A stretch of DNA of 64,000 nt. Source: Candidatus Bathyarchaeota archaeon. Lineage in GTDB: Archaea; Thermoproteota; Bathyarchaeia; 40CM-2-53-6. The position numbers were made by a program, and so were the translations under genes. Of this stretch, positions 36,526 to 40,477 are shown piece by piece. How positions within the stretch are numbered: the first letter of the stretch is position 1; each line of letters starts with the position of its first letter. The DNA lies in contig VBBN01000035.1 of assembly GCA_005888735.1 (NCBI GenBank), forward strand, positions 11,671 to 75,670. The letters are read 5' to 3'. The notes beneath the pieces were generated by a model that saw nothing but the letters and a program-made list of their open reading frames with translations, was not told where the DNA came from and made no database searches.

Positions 36526-37563
36526 TCACCGCGCTGCGATTTTCCTGTTAGACCTCTGATTTCGTGAGGATAGACTCCCATCGTCCACTGCAAGTAATCC
36601 ACTCGCCCAAGTCGCGGGTTCCGGTTCAGCATAGTCGCAACGTCCTTCAAGGGTTACTTGAGAGCCCTCAATTCTTGCGGGTGCATGGGCAGCTCGGAGC
36701 AATATGTTCTCCATTTCCCTGTTACGTGATTGGAGAGTTGTCGTGAGGATGATTGTTTCTGTTTGTTCCGCGATCGCTCTTAGGAGCCTGACGCCTTTGG
36801 CGAAAAGGTTGATAGATTCTTTCGCGTTTTTTACATCGGGGTCACAGTAGAGCTGCGTTATGTCTGAAACAACGGTGAACTTCGTGTTGTAGCGGTCTAT
36901 TCCATTGCGAAGTCGGGTGACAAGTGAATCCACTTGGTGGTGTGTGAAAGCCCTGCTGAGATGAATACGCTCATGTACCTTCCTATGATCTAAACCAAGG
37001 ATTGTTGCATAATGGTCTATTGCGTAAGAGTCGAACATGTTTCCGCCATCGATGAAAATGCAGTCACTGTTAAGACCCTCAGGCTCTGGAAGGATGGCCC
37101 TTACGCAAAGTAGGTGGCTGAAGCTAAGTGATGGCTCTCCATGAAGAGAGACTAGTTGCCCTTTCCTAATTACGAGGACCCGGTCGAAGTATTCGACCCC
37201 TGTTCTCAGGCTTTGCCTCAAGTTCCGCGTCAAACGATTACCCCTCACGAGGCTTAGAGTGAAAGGATCTGAGGGCGGGACAATACTGTCTGGGTCAGAG
37301 CAGTTGGTATTGGTGTAGAGAGCTGCTCCATCCGGGACTTTGAAAGGGTCGCGTTTTAGGTTGTTTTCTAGCTCGAAGCCGCATCCGGGGCACGTGTTAT
37401 CGAAGATAAGGACTATTTTGAGGGGATGGATATCTCTCGCTGTGAGGATTAGAGCTTCATCGCATAAACCGCAGTAGTAGAGTTGCCCTTGTGCTCCTTT
37501 TTCAGGCTGGTTTATTTGCCATGTTTTTGGTGCGAGCGGTTGCCCAGTTAGCTTTGCTGCCAT
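36526..37563 (-). CDS. RadA/RadB-like RecA-fold paralog with N-terminal zinc ribbon and degenerate Walker A (predicted ATPase-inactive)
   Basis: CGLC...CPGC at the N-terminus. LHGEPSLSFSHLLC where GPPGSGKT is expected. Retains IDGGNMFD, VVSDITQLY and TIILTTTLQS RadB-like blocks. Immediately downstream of radA. Confidence 0.5.
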   Translation of the reverse strand: MAAKLTGQPLAPKTWQINQPEKGAQGQLYYCGLCDEALILTARDIHPLKIVLIFDNTCPGCGFELENNLKRDPFKVPDGAALYTNTNCSDPDSIVPPSDPFTLSLVRGNRLTRNLRQSLRTGVEYFDRVLVIRKGQLVSLHGEPSLSFSHLLCVRAILPEPEGLNSDCIFIDGGNMFDSYAIDHYATILGLDHRKVHERIHLSRAFTHHQVDSLVTRLRNGIDRYNTKFTVVSDITQLYCDPDVKNAKESINLFAKGVRLLRAIAEQTETIILTTTLQSRNREMENILLRAAHAPARIEGSQVTLEGRCDYAEPEPATWASGLLAVDDGSLSSRNQRSNRKIAAR

Positions 37564-37584
37564 TCCGGGCCCAATTGAGCGTTC

Positions 37585-38556
37585 CTAGTCGTCTCGCTTG
37601 TTTCTCGGGGTTGCATCTTCGACTCCTTTCTCTGTAATTTGGAAGTAGTTTTCCGACTCGGGGAGGTATGGTGAGTCGATTATTTTCGCGATGCGTATTC
37701 CGCCGGAGGCTTTCTTTAGCATGACTCTGTGCGTGGAAGCGTGGGCGAGAATGTTTCCTCCTGCAGGCCGCATAGGGTCTCCAAAGAATGCTTGAGGGTT
37801 GGCTTGTACTTGGTTGGTGATGACTACTGCGAGATTGAGTGCTTGGGCGATTCGGAGGAGTTTGTGGAGGTGGCTGTTGAGGCGTTGTTGTCGTTCGGCG
37901 AGGCTTTCTCGGCCGATGTATTCGCCTCTGAAGTGGCTTAGGATTGAGTCGACTACCATGAGTTTTACGTTCTCTTCTTTGCAGATTTTGAAGGAATGGT
38001 CTACTGTGAGAATTTGATGGTCGCTATTGTAGGCTCGACTGTATATTATTCCGTCGAGTACTTTCTCAGGGTCGAGTTGTAGGCTTTGCGCCATTTGATG
38101 GACTCTCTGGGCGCTGAAAGTTCCTTCAGTGTCAATAAAGAGGACTCGTCCTTCTAGTCCACCGTCTTTGTTTAGTTGTTGGGCGTTGACGCTGAGCCTC
38201 ATGCATATCTGTGACTTTCCTGCTCCAAACTCTCCAACGAATTCGGTGATCGCCTGTGTTTCAAGGCCCCCTCCTAGTAGCTTGTTGAGGTTGTTGCTGC
38301 CGAAGCTGAGACGCTGGAGGGTTTGACGTCTCTCCCAGAGCTGTTTGGCTGTCACGAAGTCTGTATGGATTGTTTGACGTGCAGCACGGCTGATTTTGAG
38401 AGCTGTGCTGTGTTCGAGGTTGGCCTTTTCGACCAGTTCCTTTATGGGTGCTATGGCGAGGCTTTCGACGCTGTCGAAGCCTGCTTCGTGGAGTTTGCCG
38501 GCGGTTACTGGTCCAACGCCATCAAGGTCTTGGATGTCAGCTATTTCTGTGGACAA
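37585..38556 (-). CDS. radA: DNA repair and recombination protein RadA
   Basis: N-terminal HhH (LDGVGPVTAGKL), Walker A GEFGAGKSQ, 323 aa. Typical archaeal RadA. Confidence 0.9.
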   Translation of the reverse strand: MSTEIADIQDLDGVGPVTAGKLHEAGFDSVESLAIAPIKELVEKANLEHSTALKISRAARQTIHTDFVTAKQLWERRQTLQRLSFGSNNLNKLLGGGLETQAITEFVGEFGAGKSQICMRLSVNAQQLNKDGGLEGRVLFIDTEGTFSAQRVHQMAQSLQLDPEKVLDGIIYSRAYNSDHQILTVDHSFKICKEENVKLMVVDSILSHFRGEYIGRESLAERQQRLNSHLHKLLRIAQALNLAVVITNQVQANPQAFFGDPMRPAGGNILAHASTHRVMLKKASGGIRIAKIIDSPYLPESENYFQITEKGVEDATPRNKRDD

Positions 38557-38740: not shown

Positions 38741-39358
38741 ATGGAAGACCGTTTCCGAAACCCCCTTGCTGATGTAGTTGCTGCACGTTATGCATCTCAC
38801 ACCTCGCTGTACAGGGCCGCACTGAAGGACACAAGGTTCTCCTCAGGCTTCGGAATGTATCCTGACACGTACAGGCCTAAGACAGGAGGTTCGCTGGCTT
38901 GGGTCCTGGTCAAGTTCGGCTTTGTCGGAGGACTGGGCATTTTTCTCAATACGTACATCCTCTACCTCCTCACAGGACTTTACACTGAAAGATTCCTGTT
39001 GCCAAACGCTGTAGTCAGCAGCGAGGCTGCGATTCTAGCTAACTTCTCCTTGAACGAGCTGTTGGTGTTCAGGGCTCGGAACGGGAGTAGCCTGGTCCAT
39101 CGGATTCTGCTCTTCAACTTGGTCTCGTCTGCGGACCTGGTGTTGAGGCTTCCCCTCTTGTGGGGTTTGACGACTTTTCTGAACGTTCAATATTTGAGGT
39201 CCAATCTTTATGCGATACTCTTGACTTTTGGGGCTCGGTTTGTTATTAGCGAGAAAAAGATATGGTCGAAAGCTGCTAGTAATGCCGAACGAAAGCTTCC
39301 ACAGAATGCACGAGGTCCAGCCATGGCTGAACCTGCAACTGATACAGCTCACCACTAG
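38741..39358 (+). CDS. GtrA-family membrane protein (putative)
   Basis: Four-TM profile with FVGGLGIFLNTYILYLL and ANFSLNELLVF, resembling the GtrA signature. Confidence 0.45.
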   Translation: MEDRFRNPLADVVAARYASHTSLYRAALKDTRFSSGFGMYPDTYRPKTGGSLAWVLVKFGFVGGLGIFLNTYILYLLTGLYTERFLLPNAVVSSEAAILANFSLNELLVFRARNGSSLVHRILLFNLVSSADLVLRLPLLWGLTTFLNVQYLRSNLYAILLTFGARFVISEKKIWSKAASNAERKLPQNARGPAMAEPATDTAHH

Positions 39359-40001
39359 GTGTCCGGGAGAATTCTGAAACGCTTTTCCTCACGAGGTCGT
39401 CGACTATCATTACTCGTTTCTTTACGTAGTCGCTCTTCTCAGCGACGGGCAATTGCCCGAAAACCTGTGGGGCAGCGAGTCGGACGGAAGCGTACATGGC
39501 CCATGCTAGGTCACGGATTTCCCACTGGGCGTCGGCGGCACAACGCAGGTTGAAGAAGTGCAACAGTTGGCGGGGGCTCATGCTCATGACAATGTTGGTC
39601 GTAGCGGCGTTTGGCCGGAGGTAGCGGCTGTCTTCCGCTTTGACACCTCTCTGGACGAGTTCTTCTTCAGCTTGACGGGTCAAGTCCATCACGTCGGCGA
39701 AGCTCAGCTCTAGTTTTTGCTTGTTAATTTCGACCGGGACCCGGAGATTGTCTGGTATGCTGGGAGGTTTGAGGTAGCCATAGCTACGGGTGATTTTCAC
39801 GTAGCGCTGGCTTTGCTGGCTAAAGCTGGCGACTCTGTGTCGGACGATTTGATGGCTTGCGGCTCGGCTAACACCTTGGAGGTCGAAGGTGAAGCTGCCG
39901 TGCCGGTGAAGGTCTTCGTTTGCGAACTTTACGCCTCGGACTTGGAGTGCGCGTATGAGATGCGGATAGTCAGTGTAGCTGAAAAGTATCGACTTTGTCA
40001 T
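39276..40001 (-). CDS. thyX: flavin-dependent thymidylate synthase ThyX
   Basis: ThyX motif SHQIVRHRVASFSQQSQRY (RHRxxSxxxxSxRY) and FNLRCAADAQWEIRDLAWAMY. 241 aa. Confidence 0.8.
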   Translation of the reverse strand: MTKSILFSYTDYPHLIRALQVRGVKFANEDLHRHGSFTFDLQGVSRAASHQIVRHRVASFSQQSQRYVKITRSYGYLKPPSIPDNLRVPVEINKQKLELSFADVMDLTRQAEEELVQRGVKAEDSRYLRPNAATTNIVMSMSPRQLLHFFNLRCAADAQWEIRDLAWAMYASVRLAAPQVFGQLPVAEKSDYVKKRVMIVDDLVRKSVSEFSRTPSGELYQLQVQPWLDLVHSVEAFVRHY

Positions 40002-40477
40002 CGCGAGCCTAGCTCTTTTGCTTCAGCTGAGAGAACGGATGAGACATTTGGCGCTGCGATAGTCAGGGATGAGACGAGTTCCTTGGTTAGGGAGGATTGT
40101 GTGTTGTTCCGAGCGAGTTCAACTAGGACGCGGAGGTTGGTGGTGATCAGCCAACTGCCCTCATCGAGCCGGCTGGTTTCGAAGAACTTTGATGAGTTCA
40201 GGAGAGAGAGAATTTCCTCTTCTTTTGCCTCAGCGAGCCAGGTGATACTGTTGTGTTCTAGGATGTCATAGTGACCGAGTTCGAGGGCGCGTCTTAGGAG
40301 ACCGCTGATTCTTTCAGAGTCGAACACCTTCTCGCCCTCGAGGGTCCTGTCCGGGTTTGTATGAGTGAACAGTTCGTAGCCGGGGTGCGGTGAATAGCAG
40401 CTGCGCATGGCAGCTGCGCACACACGTTCCAGGTCAGGCTCATAGGCTACGAGGTGGGCACGCAAAGTGAAACTCAT
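39998..40477 (-). CDS. truncated ThyX-like domain protein lacking the RHR/SxRY catalytic motif
   Basis: N-terminal ThyX-like blocks (ERVCAAAMRSCYS, GHYDILEHNSITW) and C-terminal TNLRVLVELARN, but no RHR motif. 4-nt ATGA overlap with thyX. Confidence 0.45.
   Translation of the reverse strand: MSFTLRAHLVAYEPDLERVCAAAMRSCYSPHPGYELFTHTNPDRTLEGEKVFDSERISGLLRRALELGHYDILEHNSITWLAEAKEEEILSLLNSSKFFETSRLDEGSWLITTNLRVLVELARNNTQSSLTKELVSSLTIAAPNVSSVLSAEAKELGSR

Follow-up and report, generated by a model that had tools for sequence, protein, structure and literature searches.

A conserved two-gene ThyX with complementary active-site residues in soil Bathyarchaeia

Introduction

Why would an archaeal genome carry, directly ahead of a gene for the flavin-dependent thymidylate synthase ThyX, a second ThyX-like gene without the ThyX motif? 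The question is raised by a 64,000-nucleotide (nt) stretch of DNA from a Candidatus Bathyarchaeota archaeon (GenBank assembly GCA_005888735.1, contig VBBN01000035.1, positions 11,671 to 75,670), referred to here as the window. The minus strand of the window carries two adjacent open reading frames (ORFs), both members of the ThyX/Thy1 family: ORF1, of 159 amino acids (aa; 39998-40477), and ORF2, of 241 aa (39276-40001). The stop codon of ORF1 and the start codon of ORF2 overlap in an ATGA (39998-40001), a layout classic for translational coupling. At NCBI, ORF1 is named "hypothetical protein" (OLE74606.1, TMI30111.1) and ORF2 "FAD-dependent thymidylate synthase" (TMI30110.1; FAD, flavin adenine dinucleotide). 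An initial annotation of the sequence described a truncated ThyX-like gene coupled to an intact thyX. It proposed either a hetero-oligomer, with ORF1 in a regulatory or scaffold role, or a decaying tandem duplicate. Its coordinates, strand, lengths, ATGA overlap, and quoted motifs are all correct when checked against the sequence.

ThyX is an antibacterial drug target. The active site is found at the interface of three monomers of a homotetramer. A 2025 structural paper assigns His53 to "monomer-3", where it stacks on the flavin or the pteridine of the folate, and also describes a folate loop with S30 (PMC11940539). The spread of the active site over three identical subunits hampers efforts to separate subunit contributions by mutagenesis.

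The two-gene ThyX of the window is real and conserved, and its two halves complement each other; most likely it works as an obligate hetero-oligomer. Judged from sequence, ORF1 and ORF2 are probably paired subunits of one heteromeric ThyX, likely an obligate 2:2 pseudo-tetramer. Homology, complementary residues, adjacency, natural fusions, and purifying selection are established here. Physical association, stoichiometry, a two-site geometry, and activity of the ORF1/ORF2 pair as a synthase of deoxythymidine monophosphate (dTMP) are inferred. As far as the searchable literature shows, a two-gene form of ThyX has not been described before.

Complementary active-site residues

Residues are numbered after the Thermotoga maritima (Tm) ThyX sequence, verified as identical to PDB 1kq4_A. 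On the Pfam Thy1 profile, coverage by the two products is complementary, with ORF1 matching positions 2-64 and ORF2 positions 54-191.

ORF1 spans a whole ThyX domain in degenerate form; its fold and its Pfam match make it a family member, though a non-catalytic one. Its residues 9-83 match Thy1 (PF02511; positions 2-64 of 191) with E=2.4e-7 and 31.1 bits, compared with a gathering score of 24.8. The NCBIfam thyX equivalog TIGR02170 is matched at positions 4-62 with 22.5 bits, under its cut-off of 87.9. Pfam and NCBIfam scans of ORF1 returned generic ThyX/Thy1 models only and matched no dedicated family. An AlphaFold (AF2) model of ORF1 was built from 18 family members and has a predicted local distance difference test score (pLDDT) of 76.7. 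When this model was searched against the PDB with Foldseek, the top 50 matches listed were all ThyX, except for the ThyX-homologous methylase PolB (probability 1.00, TMq 0.50-0.58). A sequence search of ORF1 against PDB chains gave designed helical repeat proteins as top matches, which reflect a low-complexity helix and were rejected as spurious. The relation of ORF1 to ThyX is drawn from the Pfam match and the fold search. The initial annotation had called ORF1 ThyX-like and named a lack of profile similarity as the outcome that would count against this; that outcome did not occur.

Family alignments show which ThyX elements ORF1 retains. The invariant MRSCYSP (residues 24-30; 40388-40408, minus strand, as for all elements of both ORFs) falls in the region of helix 1 and the folate loop (Tm 27-37), and its C27 aligns with Tm S30. 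GHYDILEH (residues 68-75; 40253-40276) is likewise family-invariant and supplies H69, E74, and H75 as the equivalents of His53, Glu58, and His59. The next element, SSKFFETSRLDEGSW (residues 95-109; 40151-40195), is a degenerate remnant of the ThyX motif. Gln75, Arg78, His79, Arg80, Ser88, and Arg90 are lost, and Tyr91 is replaced by an invariant Trp109. Directly after this remnant comes the strand that canonical ThyX has ~70 residues later. This strand includes TTNLR (residues 112-116; 40130-40144), where the family-invariant N114 and R116 correspond to Asn163 and Arg165. The ~70-aa helical insert with Glu144 and Arg147 is deleted, and Arg174 and Gln180-Trp181-Glu182 are lost.

The same picture is given by the HMMER alignment of the ORF1 family profile to Mycobacterium tuberculosis ThyX. 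Here, GHYDILEHNSITW is aligned to GHFSVLEHASVSF, and LLESSKFFETSRIDEKRW to ELIRHRHFSYSQLS-QRY, hence RHR is replaced by SSK. TTNLRVLVEL is then aligned to VTGNYRAWRHF, with ~70 residues jumped. The absence of RHRxxSxxxxSxRY from ORF1, as initially reported, is borne out by this alignment.

ORF2 is the catalytic member of the pair; its N-terminus is reduced, and it has a C-terminal extension of ~55 aa. Residues 32-179 match Thy1 positions 54-191 of 191 (E=2e-45), and a sequence search matches ThyX chains in the PDB at 1e-16. TIGR02170 gives 130.2 bits, over the equivalog cut-off, though only positions 57-209 of 211 are covered. The complete ThyX motif, RHRVASFSQQSQRY (residues 54-67, R54-Y67; 39801-39842), is equivalent to Tm R78-Y91 and is invariant in the ORF2 family alignment. 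Gln75, Glu144, Arg147, Arg165, Arg174, and Gln180-Trp181-Glu182 are also kept. Helix 1 and the folate loop are deleted. The counterpart of GHxxxxEH is a degenerate NEDLHRH (residues 28-34; 39900-39920), in which N28 replaces His53 (a variable column across the family), R33 replaces Glu58, and H34 corresponds to His59. Asn163 is replaced by Ser. ORF2 is a ThyX family member by motif and curated cut-off, yet it is not a complete thyX. The earlier description of ORF2 as an intact thyX carrying the full motif is right about the motif and wrong about the intactness.

Three soil Bathyarchaeota metagenome-assembled genomes (MAGs) encode a longer ORF2 of 599 aa (L014:3467-5266, L015:3474-5273, L023:3468-5267). 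An insertion of ~1 kb lies directly before HQIVRHR and carries a Pfam LAGLIDADG_3 domain; it is therefore an intein, inserted at the ThyX motif. The same site holds an intein in P0259, an unsplit relative of 633 aa.

A complete domain on one chain, with helix 1, the folate loop, and His53/Glu58 all present, is encoded by neither ORF, and the full set is present only jointly. The relation between the two is complementary rather than accessory, because ORF2 has lost N-terminal active-site elements that ORF1 alone retains.

The pattern extends beyond the window. Twenty-three catalytic modules with an ORF1-like partner were compared: 5 from the window family, 10 from a second split family, and 8 from fused proteins (both described below). 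Gln75, Arg78, His79, Arg80, Ser88, Arg90, Glu144, and Arg174 are present in 23/23 and Arg147 in 22/23. Glu58 is present in 0/23, Asn163 in 1/23, and His53 in 0/8 of those aligned there; helix 1 and the folate loop are deleted. Unsplit relatives have Glu58, Asn163, and Arg165 in 18/18 and His53 in all 6 aligned over the N-terminus. ORF1-like modules are without RHR, Ser88, Arg90, and the stretch spanning Glu144, Arg147, and Arg174. They keep Glu58 and His59 in 17/17, His53 in 14/17, the equivalent of Asn163 in 36/43, and that of Arg165 in 43/43.

Conservation, pairing, and selection

A scan of species-representative genomes found 21 loci with a full ORF1 in soil Bathyarchaeia MAGs, and four metagenome loci were found besides. 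All 22 soil-Bathyarchaeia loci that have downstream sequence carry ORF2 immediately behind ORF1 in the same orientation, and a stop codon separates the two. Conservation of the pair in relatives was a check named in the initial annotation, and this adjacency answers it. The gap between the genes ranges from -4 to +11 nt and includes all three relative frames (20 loci with a clear ORF2 start codon). The reverse check, starting from ORF2-type proteins, found ORF1 upstream in 3/3 loci. The ORF1 family is composed of about 160 protein clusters with 65-89% identity and a product of ~151 aa.

A scan of public metagenome contigs identified a second split family. Its ORF1-like proteins have 137-143 aa and are ~30% identical to ORF1, and the same pairing is observed in 19/19 loci with downstream sequence. 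The catalytic partners in this family (the downstream B genes of L038-L058), together with the unsplit P0274, share a conserved, cysteine-rich C-terminal tail, GPYCxQxGYCxEGRxxCG. This tail resembles a metal or cluster-binding site and is not found in the window ORF2.

Both genes of the window family are under equally strong purifying selection. The ratio of nonsynonymous to synonymous substitution rates (dN/dS) was estimated by the Nei-Gojobori method from the 17 locus pairs whose dS is usable; ORF1 has a value of 0.053 and ORF2 one of 0.054. Regional values are 0.018 in the N-terminal part of ORF1, 0.086 in its degenerate half, and 0.036 in the ORF2 core. ORF1 is intact in every locus with complete sequence.

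One sub-lineage, represented in three independent metagenomes (L002:5949-7134, L003 at the same coordinates, and L004:2558-3743), has an unusual junction. ORF1 stops at TGA, and ORF2 continues in frame with no ATG, GTG, or TTG ahead of the conserved ILFSYT strand. The usual overlapping TTG start is destroyed by a 1-nt insertion relative to L006, L007, and L020. This layout suggests either stop-codon read-through to a fused protein or a non-canonical start codon.

Fused relatives and origin

The two modules also occur as one chain. Conexivisphaera-type fused proteins, one of them named from a Conexivisphaera MAG, have 343-413 aa, and three more fused groups have 300-337 aa. All are collinear end to end with ORF1, a linker of ~20 aa, and ORF2. 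The AF2 model of one fused protein (P0247) has a pLDDT of 88.1 and a predicted template modeling score (pTM) of 0.90. The model indicates that the two domains are held in a confidently predicted, fixed arrangement. In a fold search of this model against the PDB, no chain spans more than one domain (TMq <=0.37).

In Conexivisphaera MAGs (L036/L037:5001-7231), a gene for a Pyr_redox_2 flavoprotein oxidoreductase lies 36 nt after the fused thyX, and a family B DNA polymerase is encoded near it. It is conceivable that this oxidoreductase is a dedicated supplier of reductant for ThyX.

The closest sequence relatives of the window pair are unsplit. Bathyarchaeota and Nitrososphaeria MAGs encode unsplit ThyX proteins whose N-termini share 52-60% identity with residues 6-80 of ORF1. 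Residues 16-240 of ORF2 share 47-53% identity with the same proteins from residue ~56 to the end, C-terminal extension included. Identity to the fused Conexivisphaera-type proteins is only 31-37%. The pair is not a simple fission of such a gene: ORF1 ~54-80 and ORF2 16-40 align to the same 24 residues of the unsplit relatives, and ORF1 keeps a degenerate core. Gene duplication of a ThyX followed by complementary loss is the best explanation for ORF1 and ORF2.

The relation between split and fused forms was approached in two ways. In a neighbor-joining tree of the catalytic core, the window family groups exclusively with other split or fused forms in 0/500 bootstraps and stands beside unsplit P0243, P0341, and P0353 in 281/500. 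A single origin of all split and fused forms is without support in this tree. A hidden Markov model (HMM) was also made, without the window family, from the degenerate portions of the remaining ORF1-like groups. The C-terminal half of ORF1 scores 77 bits with this model, compared with 4-12 bits for cores of unsplit ThyX from which the insert had been deleted artificially. Because of this difference, the degenerate module looks like a single invention, and independent origins of the split and fused forms appear to be contradicted by this shared module. An old pair, from which deletion between the tandem paralogues re-formed some one-gene ThyX, would make the tree and the HMM results compatible. 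In such an event, the N-terminus of ORF1 joined to the body of ORF2 would give a complete canonical enzyme. Recombination would also reconcile the two results.

A proposed mixed complex and its alternatives

In the proposed enzyme, ORF2 would supply the share of two neighboring protomers: Gln75, Arg78-His79-Arg80, the Ser88/Arg90/Tyr91 loop, Glu144, Arg147, and Arg174. ORF1 would keep a ThyX core for its seat in the tetramer. It would also provide the third-protomer elements on the folate/NADPH face of the flavin (NADPH, reduced nicotinamide adenine dinucleotide phosphate), namely His53, Glu58, the helix-1/folate-loop region, Asn163, and Arg165. Such an assembly may consist of an ORF2 dimer flanked by two ORF1 subunits, with two of the four canonical sites complete and two dead. 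In D2 geometry, the two ORF2 subunits would sit across the axis that connects the roles of monomers 1 and 2, and the other two positions would be taken by ORF1, so that two of four sites are full. With this arrangement, ORF2 would have no need of its own third-monomer residues, nor ORF1 of catalytic ones, and this is the pattern seen. The stop/start overlap would favor equimolar synthesis of the two products. In Helicobacter pylori ThyX, residues equated here with Tm R174 and R90/Y91 sit on different chains (PMC4632503; the mapping is that of the present report and not of the cited paper). A hetero-oligomer, one of the options in the initial annotation, is the best reading of the conserved adjacency, the natural module fusions, and the equal purifying selection.

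A fuller scenario is held more tentatively and seems a little less probable than its negation. It proposes a natural obligate alpha2-beta2 ThyX in which a dead paralogue donates folate-side residues in trans (His53, Glu58, Asn163, Arg165, and the folate loop), leaving two sites rather than four. Shared in split and fused form by several uncultured archaeal lineages, the two-module architecture would have an early origin, and some one-gene archaeal ThyX would have been re-formed by tandem-paralogue deletion.

Several points weigh against a heteromeric enzyme. ORF2 still has Arg165 and all residues that bind deoxyuridine monophosphate (dUMP), and an ORF2 homotetramer may have some activity without ORF1. 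His53 is replaced in 3/17 ORF1-like modules (P0265, P0272, P0267), all distant from the window family. Among these residues, His53 is the one that a cited source ties to the third monomer; the placement of Glu58, Asn163, Arg165, and the folate loop there is tentative and follows from the T. maritima structure and from their co-retention in ORF1. The complex itself is extrapolated from the sequence patterns.

In one alternative, ORF2 is a self-sufficient homotetrameric ThyX, with ORF1 an accessory protein (regulator, assembly factor, or scaffold) on which the chemistry does not depend. In favor of this view, the ThyX motif of ORF2 is complete, none of the dUMP-contacting residues is missing, and the score exceeds the NCBIfam equivalog cut-off for thyX. 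The fold may also survive the loss of His53 by itself, as T. maritima His53 variants were purified and crystallized with FAD (PDB 4kar, 4kas). The losses in ORF2 nonetheless go beyond His53, for it has neither helix 1 nor the folate loop, and it carries other residues in place of Glu58 and Asn163, both invariant in the unsplit relatives checked. Every catalytic module with an ORF1-like partner, whether split or fused, shows the same losses, and no module without a partner does. ORF1 conserves precisely those residues, under the strongest constraint of the locus. An accessory role is unlikely on this evidence. The regulator or scaffold of an intact ORF2 suggested by the initial annotation is not supported, as His53, Glu58, the folate loop, and Asn163 are kept only by ORF1. 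Less likely again is a complex that catalyzes another flavin-dependent methylation or uses another one-carbon carrier, with the folate side rebuilt. The changes in ORF1 and ORF2 do concentrate on the folate/NADPH face, many archaea have carriers other than bacterial-type folates (PMC9931769), and ThyX homologues with other substrates exist, e.g., the UMP/dUMP methylase PolB (PDB 4p5b) among the fold matches (UMP, uridine monophosphate). However, the residues that bind dUMP and those of the motif have not changed, and ORF1 retains the His that stacks on folate. Ordinary ThyX is the annotation given to the closest unsplit relatives, and nothing points to another substrate.

The possibility that ORF1 is a decaying tandem duplicate, also raised initially, or that a two-domain gene was broken by a frameshift or assembly error, is very improbable and is rejected. 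One-chain fused versions do exist in other lineages, and one homologue of ORF1 is entered at NCBI as "FAD-dependent thymidylate synthase, partial". Decay is contradicted by a dN/dS near 0.05, no higher than that of ORF2, and by a ~151-aa product kept across the clusters of the family. A frameshift or assembly artifact is excluded because the gaps cover all three relative frames; the stop codon between the genes is also found in 22 independent assemblies. The heteromeric ThyX remains the preferred reading.

If the heteromeric ThyX is confirmed, the third-subunit residues would lie on a separate protein, and their contributions would become independently alterable; a two-site ThyX would also be available. 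The system would provide a clean case of a homo-oligomer turned into an obligate hetero-oligomer by complementary loss, with split, fused, and unsplit states all in related lineages. ORF2 expressed alone would probably yield a crippled enzyme. Annotation pipelines that drop "partial" ThyX matches lose half of the system.

Neighboring genes

A gene for a GtrA-family membrane protein (window 38741-39358, plus strand) converges on ORF2, with 83 nt of overlap at the ORF2 3' end. Related contigs (L001-L004, L033-L035) likewise have a convergent GtrA gene downstream of the pair. Further along, the minus strand (36526-38556) carries a gene for RadA recombinase (323 aa, with Rad51 and HHH_5 domains) and, after it in the same orientation, one for a 345-aa paralogue. 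This paralogue matches Rad51 only weakly and in part, and there is a CxxC...CxxC stretch at its N-terminus. Upstream of the pair in one relative (L001:1-1039) is a gene for an A-type ATPase catalytic subunit of 1133 aa with an intein (Pfam matches Intein_splicing and LAGLIDADG_3).

Comparison with known systems

No description of a heteromeric or two-subunit ThyX was found in the searchable literature, where the nearest cases are a remark on domain duplication in Chloroflexi and a ThyX-like-MsrB fusion. Chlamydial ThyX is about twice the usual length. The Chloroflexi ThyX has a domain duplication that was called "not characterized" in a 2009 remark (PMC3224940). In some Thaumarchaeota, a ThyX-like domain is fused to MsrB; it is reported to keep the flavin site and to be without the catalytic Ser88, and has been proposed to act as an electron relay (PMC6211008). 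Compared by description, this is an archaeal ThyX-like module like ORF1, but its fusion partner is a methionine sulfoxide reductase, and no catalytic ThyX is paired with it.

The closest unsplit archaeal ThyX are P0243, P0341, and P0353 (Bathyarchaeota and Nitrososphaeria MAG loci L026-L032; about 270-285 aa). An LEGEKxFD insertion is common to ORF1 and P0243 and is looser in the other unsplit relatives. Unsplit ThyX is a single gene with all residues, whereas the window has two genes that overlap by ~24 ancestral residues, each with a degenerate remainder. The Conexivisphaera-type fused ThyX has the same order, a degenerate domain and then an N-truncated catalytic domain, and the same complementary residues. 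It is one chain, whereas the modules of the window are encoded by two genes.

The canonical homotetrameric ThyX, also known as FDTS (flavin-dependent thymidylate synthase; T. maritima TM0449, PDB 1O26, and M. tuberculosis ThyX, 2AF6), has the fold common to both ORFs, and ORF2 has the same motif and the same dUMP and flavin residues. The canonical active site is composed of three protomers. Unlike canonical ThyX, the pair in the window has no polypeptide with the full set, and the third-protomer and catalytic residues are found on separate gene products. The enzyme expected from the window would be a heteromer with two active sites, in contrast to the four of the canonical tetramer.

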